Assembly (NCBI RefSeq): GCF_056746865.1
Contig: NZ_CM163382.1
DNA: 64,000 bases
Direction: 5' to 3' (one strand)
This document shows positions 7,956 to 55,641 of this stretch, piece by piece (the first letter of the stretch is position 1; every line of letters starts with the position of its first letter). The position numbers and the translations under genes are program-made. The notes beneath the pieces were generated by a model. It saw only the letters and a program-made list of their open reading frames with translations. It was not told the origin of the DNA and did no database searches.

Positions 7956-8032
<77 letters not shown>

Positions 8033-8064
8033 TCACCGTACTGCTTTATTTCATCAAATTTGAT

Positions 8065-8141
<77 letters not shown>

Positions 8142-8174
8142 TCACCGTACTGCTTTACTTCATCAAATTTTAAT

Positions 8175-8251
<77 letters not shown>

Positions 8252-9645: not shown

Positions 9646-9742
9646 GCCGGATGCGGCGTGAACGCCTTATCCGGCCTACAAATCATGCAAATCCAAAATA
9701 TTGCAGGAGTTATGTAGGCCTGATAAGCGTAGCGCATCAGGC
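9646..9742. repeat. REP/BIME cluster (two REP palindromes)
   Basis: gccggatgcggcgtgaacgccttatccggcctaca and gtaggcctgataagcgtagcgcatcaggc, typical enterobacterial REP units. Confidence 0.6.
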
Positions 9743-12736: not shown

Positions 12737-12944
12737 AAAAAAAAAGCACCGCAATTAGGCGGTGCTACATTAATCACTATGGACAGACAGGGTAAATGTA
12801 CAGGAAGTGAAAAAAGGTAGCTTTGCTACCATGGTCTGAATCGCAGACCAATTGCAAACACAACAACACAACATCACAACCGTAAGCCAAAAGTTCACCA
12901 GAACACGCATTCCGATAAAACTTTTCGTTCCGGCTCAGGAAGTG
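12737..12944 (-). ncRNA. gcvB: GcvB small regulatory RNA
   Basis: Minus strand reads ACTTCCTGAGCCGGAACGAAAAGTTTTATCGGAATGCGTGTTCTGGTGAACTTTTGGCTTACGGTTGTGATGTTGTGTTGTTGTG... ending in hairpin GCACCGCCTAATTGCGGTGC plus T-run; GU-rich targeting region present; divergent from gcvA. Confidence 0.85.
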
Positions 12945-31163: not shown

Positions 31164-31530
31164 GTCGACAGGGAGTCAGACAACGAAGTGAACATCAGGA
31201 TGATGACACTTCTGAAGGACACACCAGGATGGTGTTTCAGGGAAAGGCTTCTGGATGAAGCGAAGAGGATGACGCAGGACGCGTTAAAGGACACCTCCAG
31301 GATGGAGAATGAGAACCGGTCAGGATGATTCGGTGGGTCAGGAAGGCCAGGGACACTTCAGGATGAAGTATCACATCGGGGTGGTGTGAGCAGGAAGCAA
31401 TAGTTCAGGATGAACGATTGGCCGCAAGGCCAGAGGAAAAGTTGTCAAGGATGAGCAGGGAGCAACAAAAGTAGCTGGAATGCTGCGAAACGAACCGGGA
31501 GCACTGTGAATACAGTGCTCCCTTTTTTTA
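31164..31530 (+). ncRNA. csrB: CsrB sRNA (CsrA-sequestering RNA)
   Basis: Begins GTCGACAGGGAGTCAGACAACGAAGTGAACATCAGGATGATG; many CAGGAUG/AGGA-type CsrA-binding motifs throughout; ends with a rho-independent terminator. Confidence 0.9.
31497..31529 (+). terminator. csrB rho-independent terminator
   Basis: gggagcactg-tgaata-cagtgctccc hairpin followed by TTTTTTT. Confidence 0.85.
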
Positions 31531-31574
31531 TTCCTGCTATTCTTCGCGGCAGTTTTTCTTATTGAGGTTGCTTT

Positions 31575-37805: not shown

Positions 37806-37840
37806 GTAGGCCGGATAAGGCGTTAACGCCGCATCCGGCA
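37806..37840. repeat. REP element
   Basis: gtaggccggataaggcgttaacgccgcatccggca palindrome. Confidence 0.5.
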
Positions 37841-40726: not shown

Positions 40727-42028
40727 ATGGCGCAATTCTACTCTGCAAAACGACGCACGACGACGCGTCAGATCATAACTGTTTCAGTCAACGACCTCGA
40801 CTCTTTTGGTCAGGGCGTGGCACGACATAACGGCAAAGCGTTATTTATTCCTGGATTACTGCCACAGGAAAACGCGGAAGTTACTGTTACTGAAGATAAA
40901 AAACAATACGCCCGCGCTAAAGTCGTACGCCGGTTAAGCGATAGCCCGGAACGCGAAACGCCACGCTGCCCTCATTTTGGCGTATGCGGCGGCTGTCAGC
41001 AACAACACGCCAGCGAGGATTTACAGCAGCGAAGCAAAAGTGCGGCACTCGCCCGATTAATGAAACACGAGGTCTCTGAAGTGATCGCCGATGTTCCCTG
41101 GGGCTATCGCCGTCGCGCGCGTTTAAGTTTGAACTACTTACCGAAAACACAGCAACTTCAGATGGGGTTTCGCAAAGCGGGCTCCAGTGACATTGTCGAC
41201 GTTAAACAATGTCCCATTTTAGTGCCCCAACTTGAAGCATTGCTGCCCAAAGTCAGGGCATGCCTGGGCAGCTTACAAGCTATGCGCCATCTTGGTCATG
41301 TTGAACTGGTACAGGCAACCAGCGGCACGCTGATGATTTTGCGCCATACCGCACCGCTAAGTTCGGCAGATCGCGAAAAACTGGAACGCTTTTCGCATTC
41401 TGAAGGCCTGGATCTGTATCTCGCCCCCGATAGTGAGATACTCGAAACCGTCTCTGGTGAGATGCCCTGGTATGACTCAAACGGGTTGCGCTTAACTTTT
41501 AGCCCGCGCGATTTTATTCAGGTCAATGCGGGTGTGAACCAAAAAATGGTAGCGCGTGCGTTGGAATGGCTGGATGTGCAACCTGAAGATCGCGTACTGG
41601 ATCTGTTCTGCGGTATGGGCAACTTTACACTGCCATTGGCGACACAAGCTGCCAGTGTGGTGGGTGTAGAAGGTGTTCCGGCGCTGGTGGAAAAAGGCCA
41701 GCAGAATGCGCGTCTTAATGGCTTACACAATGTGACGTTTTATCACGAAAATCTTGAAGAAGATGTCACAAAGCAGCCGTGGGCGAAAAACGGCTTCGAT
41801 AAAGTGTTGCTGGACCCGGCGCGAGCAGGTGCCGCAGGAGTTATGCAGCAAATTATAAAACTGGAACCTATTCGTATAGTTTATGTATCCTGTAACCCTG
41901 CAACGCTGGCTCGGGATAGCGAAGCGTTATTAAAAGCAGGATATACCATTGCGCGACTGGCGATGCTGGATATGTTCCCACACACGGGACATCTGGAATC
42001 GATGGTACTTTTCTCGCGCGTTAAATAG
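40727..42028 (+). CDS. rlmD: 23S rRNA m5U1939 methyltransferase (TRAM plus Fe-S cluster)
   Basis: 433-aa ORF with Cys cluster [10 protein letters not shown]. Confidence 0.9.
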
Positions 42029-42075: not shown

Positions 42076-44310
42076 ATGGTTGCGGTAAGAAGTGCACATA
42101 TCAATAAGGCTGGTGAATTTGATCCGGAAAAATGGATCGCAAGTCTGGGTATTACCAGCCAGAAGTCGTGTGAGTGCTTAGCCGAAACCTGGGCGTATTG
42201 TCTGCAACAGACGCAGGGGCATCCGGATGCCAGTCTGTTATTGTGGCGTGGTGTTGAGATGGTGGAGATCCTCTCGACATTAAGTATGGACATTGACACG
42301 CTGCGGGCGGCGCTGCTGTTCCCTCTGGCGGATGCCAACGTAGTCAGCGAAGATGTGCTGCGTGAGAGCGTCGGTAAGTCGGTCGTTAACCTTATTCACG
42401 GCGTGCGTGATATGGCGGCGATCCGCCAGCTGAAAGCGACGCATACCGATTCTGTTTCCTCCGAGCAGGTCGATAACGTTCGCCGGATGTTATTGGCGAT
42501 GGTCGATGATTTTCGCTGCGTGGTCATCAAACTGGCAGAGCGTATTGCTCATCTGCGCGAAGTAAAAGACGCGCCGGAAGATGAACGCGTACTGGCGGCA
42601 AAAGAGTGCACCAATATCTACGCGCCGTTGGCGAACCGTCTTGGGATTGGACAACTGAAATGGGAGCTGGAAGATTACTGCTTCCGTTATCTCCACCCGA
42701 CCGAATACAAACGCATCGCAAAACTGCTGCATGAACGCCGTCTCGACCGCGAACACTATATCGAAGAGTTTGTCGGCCATCTGCGCGCTGAGATGAAAGC
42801 TGAAGGCGTTAAAGCTGAAGTGTATGGTCGACCGAAACACATCTACAGCATCTGGCGCAAAATGCAGAAAAAGAACCTCGCCTTCGATGAGCTGTTTGAT
42901 GTGCGTGCGGTACGTATTGTCGCCGAGCGTTTACAGGATTGTTATGCCGCACTGGGGATAGTGCACACTCACTATCGCCACCTGCCGGATGAGTTTGACG
43001 ATTACGTCGCTAACCCGAAACCAAACGGTTATCAGTCTATTCATACCGTGGTTCTGGGGCCGGGTGGAAAAACCGTTGAGATCCAAATCCGCACCAAACA
43101 GATGCATGAAGATGCAGAGTTGGGGGTTGCTGCGCACTGGAAATATAAAGAAGGCGCGGCAGCTGGCGGCGCACGTTCGGGACATGAAGACCGAATTGCC
43201 TGGCTGCGTAAACTGATTGCGTGGCAGGAAGAGATGGCTGATTCCGGCGAAATGCTCGACGAAGTACGCAGCCAGGTCTTTGACGACCGGGTGTACGTCT
43301 TTACGCCGAAAGGTGACGTCGTTGATTTGCCTGCGGGATCAACGCCGCTGGACTTCGCTTACCACATCCACAGTGATGTCGGGCACCGCTGCATCGGGGC
43401 AAAAATTGGCGGGCGCATTGTGCCGTTCACCTACCAGCTGCAGATGGGCGACCAGATTGAAATTATCACCCAGAAACAGCCGAACCCCAGCCGTGACTGG
43501 TTAAACCCAAACCTCGGTTACGTCACAACCAGCCGTGGGCGTTCGAAAATTCACGCCTGGTTCCGTAAACAGGACCGTGACAAAAACATTCTGGCTGGGC
43601 GGCAAATCCTTGACGACGAGCTGGAACATCTGGGGATCAGCCTGAAAGAAGCAGAAAAACATCTGCTGCCGCGTTACAACTTCAATGATGTCGACGAGTT
43701 GCTGGCGGCGATTGGTGGCGGGGATATCCGTCTCAATCAGATGGTGAACTTCCTGCAATCGCAATTTAATAAGCCGAGTGCCGAAGAGCAGGATGCCGCC
43801 GCGCTGAAGCAACTTCAGCAAAAAAGCTATACGCCGCAAAACCGCAGTAAAGATAACGGTCGTGTGGTGGTTGAAGGTGTCGGTAACCTGATGCACCACA
43901 TCGCGCGCTGCTGCCAGCCGATTCCTGGAGATGAGATTGTCGGCTTCATTACCCAGGGACGCGGTATTTCAGTACACCGCGCCGATTGCGAACAACTGGC
44001 GGAACTGCGCTCCCATGCGCCAGAACGTATTGTTGATGCGGTATGGGGCGAGAGCTACTCCGCCGGATATTCGCTGGTGGTCCGCGTGGTGGCTAATGAT
44101 CGTAGTGGGTTGTTACGTGATATCACGACCATTCTCGCCAACGAGAAGGTGAACGTACTTGGCGTTGCCAGCCGTAGCGACACCAAACAGCAACTGGCGA
44201 CCATCGACATGACCATTGAGATTTACAACCTGCAAGTGCTGGGCCGCGTGCTGGGTAAACTCAACCAGGTGCCGGATGTTATCGACGCGCGTCGGTTGCA
44301 CGGGAGTTAG
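42076..44310 (+). CDS. relA: GTP pyrophosphokinase, (p)ppGpp synthetase I
   Basis: 744-aa ORF ending ...VIDARRLHGS. Confidence 0.95.
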   Translation: MVAVRSAHINKAGEFDPEKWIASLGITSQKSCECLAETWAYCLQQTQGHPDASLLLWRGVEMVEILSTLSMDIDTLRAALLFPLADANVVSEDVLRESVGKSVVNLIHGVRDMAAIRQLKATHTDSVSSEQVDNVRRMLLAMVDDFRCVVIKLAERIAHLREVKDAPEDERVLAAKECTNIYAPLANRLGIGQLKWELEDYCFRYLHPTEYKRIAKLLHERRLDREHYIEEFVGHLRAEMKAEGVKAEVYGRPKHIYSIWRKMQKKNLAFDELFDVRAVRIVAERLQDCYAALGIVHTHYRHLPDEFDDYVANPKPNGYQSIHTVVLGPGGKTVEIQIRTKQMHEDAELGVAAHWKYKEGAAAGGARSGHEDRIAWLRKLIAWQEEMADSGEMLDEVRSQVFDDRVYVFTPKGDVVDLPAGSTPLDFAYHIHSDVGHRCIGAKIGGRIVPFTYQLQMGDQIEIITQKQPNPSRDWLNPNLGYVTTSRGRSKIHAWFRKQDRDKNILAGRQILDDELEHLGISLKEAEKHLLPRYNFNDVDELLAAIGGGDIRLNQMVNFLQSQFNKPSAEEQDAAALKQLQQKSYTPQNRSKDNGRVVVEGVGNLMHHIARCCQPIPGDEIVGFITQGRGISVHRADCEQLAELRSHAPERIVDAVWGESYSAGYSLVVRVVANDRSGLLRDITTILANEKVNVLGVASRSDTKQQLATIDMTIEIYNLQVLGRVLGKLNQVPDVIDARRLHGS

Positions 44311-44319
44311 TCTTACATA

Positions 44320-44347
44320 GCTGGATATGGCGTCAGCCGTATCCAGC
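44320..44347 (+). terminator. Hairpin downstream of relA
   Basis: gctggata ... tatccagc, 8-bp stem with 12-nt loop, followed by gatatctttt. Confidence 0.4.
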
Positions 44348-44405
44348 GATATCTTTTACTCGAAGGTATTACACCTGACAGACCCGCAATTTTCAGGACA
44401 TTCTA

Positions 44406-45197
44406 ATGAATCAAATCGACCGTTTGCTCACTATTATGCAGCGCCTGCGCGATCCGGAAAACGGCTGCCCGTGGGATAAAGAGCAGACATTTGCCACCAT
44501 TGCGCCTTACACCCTTGAAGAAACCTACGAGGTGCTGGACGCCATCGCCCGTGAAGATTTTGACGATCTTCGCGGTGAACTGGGCGATCTGCTGTTCCAG
44601 GTGGTGTTTTACGCACAAATGGCTCAGGAAGAAGGGCGCTTTGACTTTAATGATATATGCGCCGCGATCAGCGATAAATTAGAACGTCGCCATCCGCATG
44701 TTTTTGCTGACAGTTCTGCCGAAAATAGTAGTGAAGTGCTTGCCCGTTGGGAGCAAATCAAAACCGAAGAGCGCGCGCAGAAAGCGCAGCATTCGGCGCT
44801 GGACGATATTCCTCGTAGTTTACCGGCTTTAATGCGTGCGCAAAAAATCCAGAAACGTTGCGCCAACGTTGGTTTTGACTGGACGACGCTTGGTCCGGTA
44901 GTCGATAAAGTCTACGAAGAGATCGACGAGGTGATGTACGAGGCACGGCAGGCTGTTATCGACCAGGCTAAACTGGAGGAGGAAATGGGCGACCTGCTGT
45001 TTGCCACGGTCAATCTGGCTCGTCATTTAGGGACAAAAGCGGAAATCGCATTGCAAAAAGCGAACGAAAAATTCGAGCGTCGTTTTCGCGAAGTGGAGCG
45101 TATTGTTGCCGCGCGTGGACTGGAAATGACAGGTGTTGACCTCGAAACAATGGAAGAAGTCTGGCAACAGGTAAAACGGCAGGAAATTGATCTCTAA
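44406..45197 (+). CDS. mazG: Nucleoside triphosphate pyrophosphohydrolase MazG
   Basis: 263-aa ORF with tandem MazG domains; lies directly after relA with no mazE/mazF between. Confidence 0.9.
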   Translation: MNQIDRLLTIMQRLRDPENGCPWDKEQTFATIAPYTLEETYEVLDAIAREDFDDLRGELGDLLFQVVFYAQMAQEEGRFDFNDICAAISDKLERRHPHVFADSSAENSSEVLARWEQIKTEERAQKAQHSALDDIPRSLPALMRAQKIQKRCANVGFDWTTLGPVVDKVYEEIDEVMYEARQAVIDQAKLEEEMGDLLFATVNLARHLGTKAEIALQKANEKFERRFREVERIVAARGLEMTGVDLETMEEVWQQVKRQEIDL

Positions 45198-45409
45198 GGG
45201 AATTACGTGGTCAAGCGCGATTTGTGTCATTTTTTAAATGACAAGCGCTTGATTTGCGTCAAAAACATTTACCCCAAAGGGGCTATTTTCTCACTCCTGA
45301 TTTCAATAGTGCGCTGGCGAAGAGGAGGGATAATGAAAGTTTGTGGCACAGGTCATGTTCGGGTATACTGCTTTCCCGTCCTGGTTATTCCATCGTCTTT
45401 TCAACCTAA

Positions 45410-47062
<1,653 letters not shown>

Positions 47063-48506: not shown

Positions 48507-49424
48507 TTACCAGCGACCGGACGCGCCGCCACCGCCAGAAGAACCGCCCCCGCCGCTAAAGCCACCGCCTGAGCCTCCGCCACTTGAGCCGCCACCGGAA
48601 GAGGATGAAGAAGAACCTTTTCTTGAAGCTCTTTCTTTACCGAGCTTCTTGTATTTAGCGCGTAGCTTTTTATTAACGATAAGCCAAAAAATAAGCAGTG
48701 GTACGATGGCAAAAGGCGTGAGCATACCGCAGGCAACGATTAAATTGGTCCATGGTCCTGGCTCGGCAACATAGAGGAATACCATCCCGTAAATGGCGCC
48801 AGTGAGAGTGATCCAGGGTAAATTCGACGGATCGGTAAAAACAATAAAATATGAAAGTACCGCCAGCAATATAATTACAGCAAGCGATAATGGAATAAAG
48901 GGATTGATACTGTAATAATCCCCCCTGTCTTCCGATAATTCACCATTCAACAGAAGCGCGCCGATATTTTCGCTTGCCAGTGTTAATCCACCCATCAGGT
49001 CATCACTTTTGAAGGCAGGGATCAAAATATCTCTGATAATCTTCGCCGCTTGCAGGTCGGTAACCACCCCTTCCAGCCCGTAGCCAACCTCAATACGAAC
49101 AGCATGCTCCTCCCAGGCAACCAGAAGTAAAATACCATCGTTTCTCTGCTTATCTCCCAGTTTCCAGCTATCAAAAACGCGTGCTGCATATTGTTCAATG
49201 GAATCGTCTCCGGTGGACGGCACTACTAATACAGCGACCTGCGCCCGTGTTTTATGTGTAATATCCTGCAGCTGCTGCGTTAGCGATTGCTGTTCAGACG
49301 TGCTTAACGTACCAGTAATATCAGTCACTTGTTGGCGCAGCTCCGGCACAGCAATTTGCTGGGCAAGCCCGGGAAGGCTCCACAAAGCAAGTAGAATAAA
49401 GATTAAGCGCATTACGATCACCAA
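48507..49424 (-). CDS. TPM-domain (TLP18.3/Psb32/MOLO-1 family) membrane protein, paralog 1; ends in a Gly/Ser tail ...GGGGSSGGGGASGRW. Track start at 49424 is a TTG; the first ATG at 49412 (MRLIFILLALWSLPGLA) is the likelier start
   Basis: 305-aa track ORF: signal peptide, TPM domain, hydrophobic segments, low-complexity tail; adjacent to eno, the position of ygcG in K-12 as I recall it. Confidence 0.85.
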   Translation of the reverse strand: MVIVMRLIFILLALWSLPGLAQQIAVPELRQQVTDITGTLSTSEQQSLTQQLQDITHKTRAQVAVLVVPSTGDDSIEQYAARVFDSWKLGDKQRNDGILLLVAWEEHAVRIEVGYGLEGVVTDLQAAKIIRDILIPAFKSDDLMGGLTLASENIGALLLNGELSEDRGDYYSINPFIPLSLAVIILLAVLSYFIVFTDPSNLPWITLTGAIYGMVFLYVAEPGPWTNLIVACGMLTPFAIVPLLIFWLIVNKKLRAKYKKLGKERASRKGSSSSSSGGGSSGGGSGGGFSGGGGSSGGGGASGRW

Positions 49425-50566
49425 CGGCCGGATGAACCGCCGCCTCCTGAAGAACCGCCACCACCGCGGAAAGAATTTCTCGACGAAGAGCGAGAATGAG
49501 CATTACGATTCCCCGTTTTCCTGTTGCTTTTTTCTCCTGATCCCAGCTTAAGATTGCCAGTAAATTTGGCCACAATGATCAGCAGAACGATGCCAGCAAT
49601 GGTTATTGGGCCGATAAAATGATCAATTAACCCAATAATTGTTGAGATGAATGCAATATCTTTATTACTGGCGAACACCAGGCACCATCCCACAATAATT
49701 ATCAGCATCACGACAAACAATGAATTTCGTCCTGATTCACGAACCTGCGGAGTCTTCTTTTGTTTTTTCACTTTAGCGTTTTTATTTTTTGGGGTCAGCA
49801 TCATAGGAAATACGCGGCACATATTAAAAACTACCGCGAGACGCTGCTTGCAGGTTGTTGCTAACAATAAACTAAAACAAACGACCGATACCCGCCGAAT
49901 GATGACATCGTCCTGAAAGGAGAAAAACCAGACCATAGGGGTAATCATCGATATCATCCATATGCCACGCCCTGGGCGGCTGGCAAATCGCCAGAGGACA
50001 ACGATGGCAACGATCATCAGCAGTGTCCAGGCAAGACAAGGCAGCGAACGTTGCGGATTAGCAAACAGATGATTGGCTAAAGCATCCAAAGGGCTAAGGT
50101 TCGCTTTGATATGGGTAAACTGTGCGATGCTTTCAATTCCGCCCGTTAATCCAGCAAAGAGATTGTTTTTTTCGAATTCTGGCTGCATATGGTAACGAAC
50201 AATTTGCGAAGCTTGTTCCGGCGGCAACATCTGTTCCAGTCCATGTCCAATCTTCATTGACGCCAGCCCTTCCGGCCATACGACGAGAATTAAGATACCT
50301 TCGCCATATCGCTTCTCTCCAACGGGTTTCCAGTGATATACCCCGTATCTCTGCGAGGCTGCAAGTTTAATGTTTTTGCCCCCTGTGGTCGGCGTGACCA
50401 ACACGGCCACCTGGAAGTGGTTTTGCTGCTCGAGAGTCTGTAATTGTTGAGTTAAAGCAGTTTGTTCTTCTGTCGTTAATGTCCCGGTTAAGTCAGTTAC
50501 TGAAGGCAATTGTTCAGCGAATACCTGAAAACCGCATAGCATCAGAAGTAAGAGAAAAATACGCAT
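49418..50566 (-). CDS. TPM-domain-like membrane protein, paralog 2 (divergent, longer membrane region); ends ...GGGGSSGGGGSSGRW
   Basis: 382-aa ORF: signal peptide MRIFLLLLMLCGFQVFA, several hydrophobic segments, Lys-rich linker, Gly/Ser tail; stop lies 5 nt before the paralog 1 ATG. Confidence 0.8.
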   Translation of the reverse strand: MRIFLLLLMLCGFQVFAEQLPSVTDLTGTLTTEEQTALTQQLQTLEQQNHFQVAVLVTPTTGGKNIKLAASQRYGVYHWKPVGEKRYGEGILILVVWPEGLASMKIGHGLEQMLPPEQASQIVRYHMQPEFEKNNLFAGLTGGIESIAQFTHIKANLSPLDALANHLFANPQRSLPCLAWTLLMIVAIVVLWRFASRPGRGIWMISMITPMVWFFSFQDDVIIRRVSVVCFSLLLATTCKQRLAVVFNMCRVFPMMLTPKNKNAKVKKQKKTPQVRESGRNSLFVVMLIIIVGWCLVFASNKDIAFISTIIGLIDHFIGPITIAGIVLLIIVAKFTGNLKLGSGEKSNRKTGNRNAHSRSSSRNSFRGGGGSSGGGGSSGRW

Positions 50567-50580
50567 ATCAATTCCTTTTG

Positions 50581-51474
50581 TTACCAGCGCCCGGAAGCGC
50601 CACCGCCACCAGATGAACCGCCACCACCGCTGAAATTGTCATTGTTGAATGAAGAGGATGACGATGATGAATAGTGGGAGGAAGAATTGCTTCTTGTATG
50701 GCGTGATGGCTGGTTGGCATCACGCATCGAATCCCGAACCTTTTTGCCGAAGGGGGTAAAAGCGATGGCGACAGCCAGGAACGGTGTGGCGAAGCAGAGT
50801 AATGTTGCGAGTACTCCCCAGCTTCCGCTGAAGCCTGCTATAGGTAAAACAAAGGCCAGTACAATAGCTGCGAAGCAAATTACTCCCAGCGTTTTGATAT
50901 ATCCTCTGGCAGAAATAAACGTCAGTACTATCGCCCAGACTAACAAAGCCCACCAACCGCTAAAAGGCAAAGGGTGATCGGTCGGTGTTATCGTTGCTAA
51001 ATTATTCCCCGTCAGACGACTTTCAATATCGCTGATTCCCTTTTGCAAACCACCAGCCAGGTCCCCTTTTTTAAATGCCGGAATAATACTGTTGCGAATA
51101 ATTTTCCCGGACTGTGCATCCGTAATAATACCTTCCAGTCCGTAACCGATTTCAATACGCACGGTATGATCCTGCCAGGCGACTAACAGTAGAACGCCAT
51201 CATCGTGGTCTTTATCACCCGGTTTCCAGCTATCGAATACCCGCGTTGCGTACTGCTCGATGGTTTCATCGCCAGTTGTTTCAACCACTAACACGACCAA
51301 CTGTGCGTAGTTTTTTTGCGTCAGGGCTTTAATCTGGTTGGTCAGGGTGTTTACTTCGCTGTTTGTTAATGTGCCGGTTAAGTCATTCACATACTTGGGT
51401 GATTCAGGTACTGGAATTTGTGTGGCAAACACAGATGAACAGAAGAAAGCCATAAGGAAGATAAAATTTCGCAT
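50581..51474 (-). CDS. TPM-domain membrane protein, paralog 3; ends ...GGGGSSGGGGASGRW
   Basis: Track ORF 50581..51504; start taken at the ATG at 51474 (MRNFIFLMAFFCSSVFA), 13 nt after the LemA stop with a GGGGAAG Shine-Dalgarno-like sequence. Confidence 0.8.
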   Translation of the reverse strand: MRNFIFLMAFFCSSVFATQIPVPESPKYVNDLTGTLTNSEVNTLTNQIKALTQKNYAQLVVLVVETTGDETIEQYATRVFDSWKPGDKDHDDGVLLLVAWQDHTVRIEIGYGLEGIITDAQSGKIIRNSIIPAFKKGDLAGGLQKGISDIESRLTGNNLATITPTDHPLPFSGWWALLVWAIVLTFISARGYIKTLGVICFAAIVLAFVLPIAGFSGSWGVLATLLCFATPFLAVAIAFTPFGKKVRDSMRDANQPSRHTRSNSSSHYSSSSSSSFNNDNFSGGGGSSGGGGASGRW

Positions 51475-51487
51475 AGAACTTCCCCGC

Positions 51488-52090
51488 TTAATGAGCATTA
51501 GCATTCTGGCTAAAATCTATTGTTGGGGCTTTACTTACTGCGGCGACATCATCCGGCAAATAATTTTTCTTTGGTGTGTAATCCATGACCTTTGCGGTTA
51601 ACACAGCGGGGAATTTGCGGATAGTGACATTATATTGTTCAATGGCTTTAATATATCTTCCTCGCGCAACGGCAATCCGATTTTCACTTCCTTCAAGCTG
51701 TACCATTAAATTTTGATAGAGTTCCTGAGATTTTAACTCAGGGTAACGCTCACTAATTATCGTTAACTGACCGAGAGTGCGAGTCACCTGCGCTTGAGCC
51801 TGTTGCCAGGCTTGTAATTTTTGTTCATCGCCCGGAGTTTGCTGAAGATCGCTACTGGCGCGATTAGCCTGGCTACGAGCCAATGTTACGGCTTCCAGTA
51901 CATCTCGTTCATGGCTGGAATAACCTTTAATGCTGGCGACAAGATTAGGAATAAGATCGGCGCGACGTTGATATTGATTCAATACCTCAGACCAGGAGGC
52001 GTTAACCTGCTCATCATAGGTTTGAATATCGTTATATCCACAGCCTGATAAATTGAAAATAAATATAATTACGATGAATATTCTGAGCAT
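51488..52090 (-). CDS. LemA-family lipoprotein
   Basis: 200-aa ORF; N-terminus MLRIFIVIIFIFNLSGC has a lipobox (LSGC); LemA-like coiled region; first gene of the apparent LemA-TPM operon. Confidence 0.85.
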   Translation of the reverse strand: MLRIFIVIIFIFNLSGCGYNDIQTYDEQVNASWSEVLNQYQRRADLIPNLVASIKGYSSHERDVLEAVTLARSQANRASSDLQQTPGDEQKLQAWQQAQAQVTRTLGQLTIISERYPELKSQELYQNLMVQLEGSENRIAVARGRYIKAIEQYNVTIRKFPAVLTAKVMDYTPKKNYLPDDVAAVSKAPTIDFSQNANAH

Positions 52091-53273: not shown

Positions 53274-53851
53274 GAGTTCCCCGCGCCAGCGGGGATAAAC
53301 CGTCTGGGCCGGATTCGATCCCGCGCGTACCGGAGAGTTCCCCGCGCCAGCGGGGATAAACCGTACAATCCCGCATCGAAACTGAATACCCCGATGAGTT
53401 CCCCGCGCCAGCGGGGATAAACCGTTGCCCAGGCTTTTGCGAAAATTTGTGATTTGGAGTTCCCCGCGCCAGCGGGGATAAACCGACACGGGGCAGATTG
53501 AGCAGGACTGCGACCTCGAGTTCCCCGCGCCAGCGGGGATAAACCGGCAGCAGATTTACAAACAGATCGGAGATTACTGAGTTCCCCGCGCCAGCGGGGA
53601 TAAACCGCGCGGCCTGCGCTCGCGTAAAATCAGTTGCAGGAGTTCCCCGCGCCAGCGGGGATAAACCGTCCGCGCAAGCCTATATAAACCAGATTGATCA
53701 GAGTTCCCCGCGCCAGCGGGGATAAACCGCGAAATCGCACGCGCTTCCCGCATGGGGGAAAGAGTTCCCCGCGCCAGCGGGGATAAACCGTGTAAAAGTC
53801 TTGGTTTTGGCGCATCATTTGTGAGTTCCCCGCGCCAGCGGGGATAAACCA
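53274..53851 (+). CRISPR. Type I-E CRISPR array: 10 repeats of 29 bp (GAGTTCCCCGCGCCAGCGGGGATAAACCG) and 9 spacers of 32 bp; the last repeat is degenerate at its 3' end
   Basis: Exact 61-bp periodicity; repeats start at 53274, 53335, 53396, 53457, 53518, 53579, 53640, 53701, 53762, 53823; no cas genes in the window. Confidence 0.95.
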
Positions 53852-54379
53852 CCATATAACCCGTTATCTCTTTCTCAAGTTTTTATATTAGCAGTACTCG
53901 TATTAAGCAATATATCCACGTAACACCTCATGTTCAAAATAGCTCTCCATATATGAGAAGTTCACAATTATCGATACAAAAAATCAAATTTAATTAAAGT
54001 GTTAGTTGTATGATACTTAAATCATTAAGAAATTATCATATATTATTTTTTTAATATTGAATTGATGTTTGTTAATTTTTTCTTTAGGATAGTAGTTTGT
54101 TTTTTAAGCTTATTATTCATTGATTAAGTAATAAATCTGGAAATTTGTCTTTGTTTTGAGGCTAATGAGTGGTTTTACATAATCGCCTCTATACGCTGTT
54201 GATGAATAGTTCTTATGAATAAAGATATCCAGTTCATACTTTAAGTGAAAATTGATAAAGTGCGATTCGTATTGTCTTTTATTCTAAATAGACTGGCCCC
54301 CTGAATCTCCAGACAACCAATATCACTTAAATAAGTGATAGTCTTAATACTAGTTTTTAGACTAGTCATTGGAGAGCAG

Positions 54380-54745
54380 ATGATTGATGTCTTAGGACCG
54401 GAGAAACGCAGACGGCGTACTACACAGGAAAAGATCGCTATTGTTCAGCAGAGTTTTGAACCGGGAATGACGGTCTCCCTTGTTGCCCGGCAACACGGTG
54501 TGGCAGCCAGCCAGTTATTTCTCTGGCGCAAGCAATACCAGGAGGGAAGTCTTACTGCTGTGGCCGCAGGAGAGCAGGTCGTTCCTGCCTCTGAACTTGC
54601 TGCTGCCATGAAGCAGATTAAAGAACTCCAGCGCCTGCTCGGCAAAAAAACGATGGAAAATGAACTCCTTAAAGAAGCCGTTGAATACGGGCGTGCAAAA
54701 AAGTGGATAGCGCACGCGCCCTTATTGCCCGGGGATGGGGAGTAA
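54380..54745 (+). CDS. insC: IS2 transposase OrfA (InsC), helix-turn-helix
   Basis: Track ORF 54335..54745; start taken at [13 protein letters not shown] (121 aa). Confidence 0.9.
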
Positions 54746-55608
54746 GCTTAGTCAGCCGTTGTCTCCGGGTGTCGCGTGCGCAGTTGCACGTCATTCTCAG
54801 ACGAACCGATGACTGGAAAGATGGTCGCCGCAGCCGTCACTCAGATGATACGGATGTGCTTCTCCGTATACACCATGTTATCGGAGAGCTGCCCACGTAT
54901 GGTTATCGTCGGGTATGGGCGCTGCTTCGCAGACAGGCCGAACTTGATGGTATGCCTGCGATCAATGCCAAACGTGTTTACCGGATCATGCGCCAGAATG
55001 CGCTGTTGCTTGAGCGAAAAACCGCTGTACCGCCATCGAAACGGGCACATACTGGCAAAGTGGCCGTGAAAGAAAGCAATCAACGATGGTGCTCTGACGG
55101 GTTCGAGTTCCGCTGTGATAACGGAGAAAAACTGCGAGTCACGTTCGCGCTGGACTGCTGTGACCGTGAGGCACTGCACTGGGCAGTCACTACGGGCGGC
55201 TTCGACAGTGAAACAGTACAGGACGTAATGCTGGGAGCGGTGGAACGCCGCTTCGGCAACGAGCTTCCGGCGTCTCCAGTAGAGTGGCTGACGGATAATG
55301 GTTCATGCTACCGGGCTAATGAAACACGGCAGTTTGCCCGGATGTTGGGGCTTGAACCGAAGAACACGGCGGTGCGGAGTCCGGAGAGTAACGGCATAGC
55401 AGAGAGCTTCGTGAAAACGATAAAGCGTGACTACATCAGTATCATGCCTAAACCAGACGGGTTAACGGCAGCAAAGAACCTTGCAGAGGCGTTCGAGCAT
55501 TATAACGAATGGCATCCGCATAGTGCACTGGGTTATCGCTCGCCACGGGAATATCTACGGCAGCGGGCCAGTAATGGGTTAAGTGATAACAGGTGTCTGG
55601 AAATATAG
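54703..55608 (+). CDS. insD: IS2 transposase OrfB (InsD), DDE catalytic domain; overlaps OrfA in the -1 frame (programmed frameshift arrangement)
   Basis: 301-aa ORF recognised as IS2 InsD. Confidence 0.9.
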
Positions 55609-55641
55609 GGGCAAATCCACTAAAGACATCGAGTGTAGTTA

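Follow-up and report, generated by a model that had tools for sequence, protein, structure and literature searches.

In Escherichia coli K-12, relA and mazG are separated by a 731-bp spacer (chpA locus) containing an autoregulated mazE promoter followed by the toxin-antitoxin genes mazE and mazF, and lacking a REP hairpin after relA. This gene order, relA-mazE-mazF-mazG, which an earlier note on the DNA studied here had given for K-12, is correct and is annotated in MC1061. The distribution and horizontal transfer of these modules have reportedly been treated by Fiedoruk et al. in 2015 and by Ramisetty & Santhosh in 2016, and Fraikin et al. (2020) cite Fiedoruk et al. (2015) along with Pandey & Gerdes (2005) in connection with the mazEF-free arrangement. 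A mazEF-free relA-mazG arrangement is described by Fraikin, Goormaghtigh & Van Melderen (2020, PMC7167474), who call relA-mazG in strains without mazEF, e.g. UTI89, an 'undisturbed bicistronic operon'. Phylogroup B2 is polymorphic in this respect, with UTI89 lacking mazEF (PMC7167474) and NRG857c carrying the classic copy. The relA-mazG spacer has also been described as a plastic insertion site, occupied by parDE in some Salmonella, while the roles of MazF in stress and cell death are disputed (Fraikin et al. 2020, PMC7167474).

Here we analyze the relA-mazG spacer in a 64,000-nt stretch of E. coli DNA (hereafter the window), which lacks mazEF at this locus. The absence is a true but ordinary strain difference that has already been published: a common polymorphism, not peculiar to this strain. 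What base-level comparison adds is an indication that the empty allele is the ancestral form, and mazEF an insertion that displaced a REP. In the following sections, we elaborate on the structure of the spacer, its relatives in E. coli and other Enterobacterales, and the histories that could account for it.

The relA-mazG spacer of the window

The window carries rlmD, relA, mazG and pyrG in series, all on the + strand, as identified from the open reading frame (ORF) listing and NCBIfam matches. Downstream of rlmD (40727-42028), relA (42076-44310) encodes a GTP diphosphokinase of 744 aa (NCBIfam NF008124, full-length match, 1678 bits) and ends in a TAG stop codon at 44308-44310. The 263-aa nucleoside triphosphate pyrophosphohydrolase encoded by mazG (44406-45197; TIGR00444, 419 bits, and NF007113) is preceded by a Shine-Dalgarno sequence, AGGA, at 44395-44398, seven nt before the mazG ATG, and the next gene is pyrG (45425-47062). 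The ORF listing and NCBIfam matches bear out the gene boundaries given in the earlier note, with relA ending at 44310, mazG starting at 44406, and an intercistronic spacer of 95 bp between them (44311-44405, + strand). This mazEF-free form of the spacer is referred to below as the short allele.

Positions 31000-57000 of the window are 99.996-100% identical over ∼24.7 kb, apart from one IS2, to strain 118UI and a set of human and poultry isolates. Strain 118UI belongs to ST69, phylogroup D (Table 2 of PMC8900328), and by this measure the window matches ST69, phylogroup D, genomes; 118UI is used below as its proxy. Both relA and mazG are likewise annotated in the identical region of 118UI, and the RefSeq annotations of 118UI and of SE15 place mazG directly after relA with no gene between, the two genomes having the same 95-bp spacer as the window. 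The arrangement is therefore the one known from the mazEF-free strains UTI89 and SE15 (PMC7167474), with relA and mazG adjacent and 95 bp apart. It differs in its background, since the published examples are from B2 whereas the window is of the ST69, phylogroup D, type, and its flanks differ by ∼1.5% from those of SE15.

Absence of mazEF coding sequence

The earlier note had claimed that mazE and mazF, although present in K-12, are absent here, and both alignment and translated searches bear this out. Using tblastn with the K-12 MazE, MazF, ChpS and ChpB proteins as queries, no match was found in the spacer or anywhere in the 64-kb window, the best E value being 0.022, at the level of noise. 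For a MazF/PemK-family toxin ORF in particular, the MazF and ChpB queries found nothing in the spacer and gave this same best value of 0.022 window-wide; for a MazE/AbrB-type antitoxin ORF, the MazE and ChpS queries gave nothing better than E = 2.7 across the window. Hidden coding sequence for any of these four proteins, whether in the spacer or elsewhere in the window, was accordingly rejected. Alignment likewise shows nothing in the window corresponding to the palindromic mazE promoter/operator of K-12 (GAAATTTGCTCGTATCTACAATGTAGATTGATATA...), which is located downstream of relA. In addition, no Rfam family matched the spacer at the gathering threshold, and a consensus scan of 44000-45500 returned no sigma-70-like promoter, which is weak negative evidence.

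The earlier description of the spacer as containing only a hairpin and no small ORFs holds as far as mazE and mazF are concerned, but not to the letter, as a mechanical ORF of 50 codons (44327-44479) is present. It starts at an ATG inside the hairpin stem and overlaps the mazG start out of frame, and its 50-aa product has no NCBIfam or PADLOC family match. Nor is it conserved, with the ATG lost in the divergent Escherichia lineage L003 (see below) and a frameshift in A34. For want of family match and conservation, this ORF was rejected as a gene.

Comparison with the K-12 and E. albertii alleles

The flanking genes and their orientation are the same in the window and in K-12. Homology with K-12 breaks off 1-3 nt past the relA TAG and picks up again 34 nt upstream of the mazG ATG, at CACCTGACAGACCCGCAATTTTCAGGA, a shared segment that includes the mazG Shine-Dalgarno sequence. 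This common leader (CACCTGACAGACCCGCAATTTTCAGGACA...; window 44372-44405, + strand) forms invariant columns in an alignment of K-12, E. albertii, the window and the two divergent Escherichia lineages L003 and L004. Between the shared flanks, pairwise and multiple alignments define an allele-specific segment of ∼61 nt in the window (44311-44371, + strand) versus ∼700 nt in K-12, and the two sequences are unrelated. The ∼700 nt of K-12 consist of the mazE promoter/operator, mazE, mazF and a post-mazF tail.

Aligning the junction with K-12, as the earlier note had proposed for distinguishing a precise deletion scar from an ancestral empty site, yields evidence that favors an ancestral-type empty site. 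A precise deletion scar was rejected, since K-12 does not have the 61 nt that lie between the shared flanks and nothing of mazEF is left in the spacer of the window. Because a deletion cannot create sequence that its parent lacked, the junction in the window represents an allelic replacement rather than an excision scar.

A junction of the other kind is found in E. albertii NBRC 107761 (locus L005, 2740-3000), where mazE and mazF are likewise missing between relA and mazG. Its 261-bp spacer keeps ∼35 nt of the mazE promoter/operator and ∼40 nt of the post-mazF tail, and these remnants flank a multicopy BIME/REP cluster, present at a median of 31 places per E. coli genome. The E. albertii spacer is a genuine scar of mazEF loss, whereas the window has neither the operator start nor the post-mazF tail nor the BIME insert. 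A search for the E. albertii-type scar allele in complete E. coli genomes did not find it, and returned only the multicopy BIME that forms its middle part.

A REP-type hairpin downstream of relA

The hairpin mentioned in the earlier note is real, and turns out to be longer and stronger than described there. It occupies 44320-44347 (+ strand), starting 9 nt past the relA stop codon, and consists of a 12-pair stem (arms GCTGGATATGGC and GCCGTATCCAGC) closed by a GTCA loop. Its predicted folding energy is -23.3 kcal/mol (z = -4.77), and none of 200 shuffled sequences folds as well. Over the first 60 nt after relA, the predicted energy is -28.4 kcal/mol in the window versus -8.5 kcal/mol in K-12.

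Several features relate this hairpin to the REPs of Enterobacteriaceae. It is extragenic, its 12-pair stem lies at the 3' end of a gene, and it is an imperfect palindrome of the same length as REPs, located after relA at the site of the canonical REPs of Citrobacter, Klebsiella and Salmonella. Its core, GCTGGATATGGCG, departs at two positions from the canonical REP core GCCGGATAAGGCG, a sequence that the window also contains in textbook REPs at 9646-9675 and 37810-37839. The hairpin can be aligned with the second of these, and also with the REP that occupies the orthologous position in C. gillenii. Compared with the family consensus GCCGGATAAGGCG...CGCCGCATCCGGC, 11 of 13 core positions match, and both hairpin arms carry substitutions. 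The conserved 5' GTAG of REPs is the recognition and cleavage motif of RAYT; the window copy lacks it, having ATAG at 44316-44319, while GTAG is present in the L003 and Citrobacter copies. The stem of the L003 copy shows a compensatory change from T-A to C-G. Other departures from canonical REPs are the change of the GCCGG arms to GCTGG/CCAGC, a loop that is 2 nt shorter, and the occurrence of the 62-nt allele-specific segment with its hairpin at a single place per genome. Judged by these likenesses and differences, the hairpin is probably a decayed REP copy.

The hairpin is followed by an interrupted T-run (GATATCTTTT; 44348-44357, + strand), and a consensus scan, which by itself says nothing about function, flagged the two together as terminator-like. 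Because the four Ts start 6 nt past the stem, however, the combination does not seem to be a textbook intrinsic terminator.

One could suppose that the hairpin region encodes a product of its own, i.e. a small RNA, a riboswitch-like element or the 50-codon ORF, given that the hairpin is very stable and that such a mechanical ORF exists. The absence of an Rfam match at the gathering threshold in the spacer speaks against the RNA versions, and the ORF version has to contend with a start inside the stem, an out-of-frame overlap with mazG, the lack of any family match, and an ATG or reading frame that is broken in L003 and A34. REP ancestry moreover accounts for the hairpin, and we give the idea of an encoded product scarcely any credence.

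The spacer in other Enterobacterales

To place the two alleles in a wider context, loci were collected by a MazG-based scan with one genome per species, yielding 80 Enterobacterales loci with 3 kb of flank on either side; E. fergusonii and named E. marmotae or E. ruysiae genomes are not among them. In all 80 of these other Enterobacterales loci (± 3 kb), tblastn found no MazE or MazF. Nearly all have relA as the immediate upstream neighbor of mazG, and most of the spacers measure 60-130 bp. A stable hairpin that begins at most 15 nt after the relA stop codon is present in 65 of 79 other loci, some of these being classical terminators, not REPs; the K-12 mazEF allele lacks one.

Canonical REP palindromes are found right after relA in the spacers of Citrobacter, Klebsiella and Salmonella. 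The C. gillenii spacer is also 95 bp, and aligns with that of the window across the REP and its borders. Within Escherichia, the same 95-bp allele is carried by L003 and L004, which are separate species representatives of two divergent lineages; their relA identities are 92.8% (L003) and 96.6% (L004), compared with 98.3% for K-12 and 91.0% for E. albertii. Since REPs are mobile, convergence might in principle account for their shared position in different genera.

In a few genera the spacer holds other genes. In Buttiauxella agrestis (L042, 1209-3001), it contains a Hcp/TssD gene (TIGR03344), a gene for a DUF4225 protein (PF13988) and an ORF for a 109-aa membrane protein, a cassette that looks like a type VI effector-immunity set. 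In Superficieibacter (L016, 2050-3001; L018), the spacer is ∼950 bp, and L016 has an ORF for a 112-aa membrane protein whose similarity to that of B. agrestis was judged by eye only. These cassettes fit the idea of an insertion hotspot, and the pattern suggests that conflict cassettes have repeatedly inserted into the relA-mazG spacer.

Distribution of the two alleles in E. coli

Among 5426 complete E. coli genomes, a 62-nt core probe detected the short allele in 1000 (18.4%), always at one chromosomal place, and 985 of these 1000 matches were at least 99% identical to the probe. K-12-type mazEF DNA was found in 4419 (81.4%), always chromosomal and never on a plasmid. The two alleles together account for 5419 of the 5426 genomes; the other seven have neither at megablast sensitivity, one of them having no junction match. 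Because the counts are near-complementary and mazEF is never found on a plasmid, K-12-type mazEF does not seem to be present elsewhere in genomes with the short allele. In one mazEF genome, SW07163, the module is split into two places, probably through an insertion.

Carriers of the short allele include SE15 and an O25b:H4-ST131 strain, both of phylogroup B2, whose 62-nt core is 100% identical to that of the window. A distribution restricted to B2 was nevertheless rejected, as the window matches ST69/phylogroup D and B2 itself is polymorphic.

The paralogous chpSB site

The earlier note had also called for a search for chp homologs, and the chpSB site was examined together with the window, the MazF-family search extending over the whole window plus two regions of 118UI. 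The chpSB module is dimorphic too, with ∼3086 of the 5426 genomes carrying it between ytfP and ppa. Intact chpSB is lacking in 118UI, where the ytfP-ppa spacer (L086, 5614-5992) is 379 bp and has no annotated chpS or chpB. What remains of chpB in it is a degenerate stretch of ∼80 bp, matched by tblastn at E = 0.002 with 50% identity over 28 aa. This site is a true deletion remnant, whereas the relA-mazG site is clean. Neither K-12 MazF-family module is thus intact at its canonical site in the proxy 118UI.

Origin of the short allele

The explanation that best accommodates these comparisons is that the short allele is an ancestral-type, uninserted spacer, and that mazEF entered within Escherichia, displacing the REP. 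We assign a probability of roughly 0.85 to this explanation as a whole; the direction of the event in this particular lineage is a point that we infer. The spacer of the window would then be a never-occupied ancestral form, comprising a degenerate REP hairpin, a short linker and the mazG ribosome-binding site. In most E. coli (81%, including K-12), a ∼700-bp cassette would have replaced the REP-containing 61 nt, while this strain would carry the uninserted allele and accordingly make no MazE or MazF from the relA-mazG locus. The opposite course of events, secondary loss, starts from an ancestor with K-12-type relA-mazEF-mazG in which the module was deleted in place, the 95-bp junction being the scar. 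Such a course would agree with mazEF being the majority state in E. coli (81%), with the E. albertii allele, which proves that loss occurs at this site, and with the true deletion remnant of 118UI at the paralogous chpSB site. It is difficult to reconcile with a spacer in which nothing survives of the mazE promoter/operator, the mazE and mazF genes or the post-mazF tail, and whose 61 nt, absent from K-12, match outgroup REPs at the same position. Secondary loss is largely refuted by these observations, and we regard it as highly improbable.

A different route to the same allele is re-import, in which the lineage was once mazEF+ and later recovered the empty allele when DNA of an empty-site donor recombined with it across relA and mazG. 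The E. albertii scar shows that the mazEF-type allele is old in the genus, and an ancestor of this lineage could have carried mazEF. To compare flank haplotypes, the window was aligned in 250-nt bins, covering ∼3 kb of left flank and 2.5 kb of right flank, with SE15 and AF22 (short allele) and AF34 and EDL933 (mazEF). It diverges from all four by 1.1-1.6% on the left and 0.5-1.5% on the right, with no identical tract around the junction in any of them. The closest right flank (window 44372-46900, ∼0.5% divergence) is that of mazEF+ AF34 (L090), which also has the same MazG protein accession as 118UI (WP_001071643.1). Because the closest right flank and the same MazG belong to a mazEF+ strain, allele state is uncoupled from flank haplotype, and both alleles evidently travel by homologous recombination spanning relA and mazG. 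This uncoupling, with AF34 sharing its MazG protein with ST69 genomes, is consistent with re-import, as are the polymorphism within B2 itself (NRG857c has mazEF, UTI89 does not) and the identity of the 62-nt core in ST69 and B2 carriers while their flanks differ by ∼1.5%. The last point loses some of its force, however, as zero differences in 62 nt would be expected by chance ∼30% of the time at ∼2% divergence (our own estimate). Moreover, within 250 nt of the junction, the window and B2 short-allele genomes differ at 4 positions on the left side and at 9 on the right side; because there is no identity tract around the junction in this comparison, there is no sign of recent import, and a recent import of the allele from B2 was rejected. 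Re-import is the less probable course, although one to be taken seriously, and retention and re-import in this lineage are not separable with present sequence data. In either case, the uninserted, ancestral type of the allele itself would be unaffected.

Expected consequences for relA and mazG expression

The hairpin, 9 nt past the relA stop codon, most likely acts as a stabilizer of the relA 3' end or a partial terminator, and relA and mazG are probably co-transcribed through it. Co-transcription would agree with the published view of the arrangement as a bicistronic operon (PMC7167474) and, more weakly, with the scan of 44000-45500, which gave mazG no promoter of its own. The terminator-like call could on the other hand mean substantial termination before mazG. 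In the short allele, mazG would lie outside the control of the MazE/MazF-autoregulated promoter, unlike in K-12.

According to Liang et al. (2015), as summarized in PMC12306157, REPs located <16 nt from a stop codon cause terminating ribosomes to stall and lower translation of the upstream gene. Because the hairpin, 9 nt from the relA stop codon, is inside this reported <16-nt range, it is conceivable, if rather unlikely, that the two alleles also differ in RelA output, with the hairpin tuning it and limiting read-through into mazG. If this were true, the mazEF insertion would have rewired relA and mazG expression in K-12, and the stringent-response set-point of this standard model strain would be an atypical one.

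As regards MazF itself, MazF-dependent phenotypes of K-12 (RNA cleavage under stress, and effects on phage P1 and RNA phages) cannot stem from this locus in the strain studied here, and the same limit applies to approximately one in five sequenced E. coli. The phenotypic weight of the missing mazEF is uncertain, because the roles of MazF in stress and cell death are the disputed ones noted above (PMC7167474). The practical value of the comparison lies in annotation and interpretation, and its weight as a discovery is small. It does support the view of chromosomal toxin-antitoxin modules as accessory insertions into pre-existing operons, not integral to the stringent-response locus.

Other features of the window

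Rfam matches at the gathering threshold in the window comprise CsrB (31173-31532, + strand), GcvB (12738-12943, - strand), three tandem tRNA genes (7959-8251, - strand) and ES036/CssrF (9679-9721), the last adjoining the canonical REP pair at 9646-9675. The eno-queE interval (window ∼48507-52090, mapped from L083 17508-21091) contains three TPM-domain genes and a LemA-family gene on the minus strand, according to the 118UI annotation. A CRISPR repeat array lies between queE and ygcE (window ∼53274-53851, transferred by offset from the 118UI annotation at L083 22275-22852). Between this orphan array and ygcE is an IS2 copy of 1331 bp (54289-55619) with TnpA and TnpB ORFs and a 5-bp target duplication, CTAAA. 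The IS2 is lacking in 118UI, and matches to the other closest genomes likewise cover 94% in two pieces.
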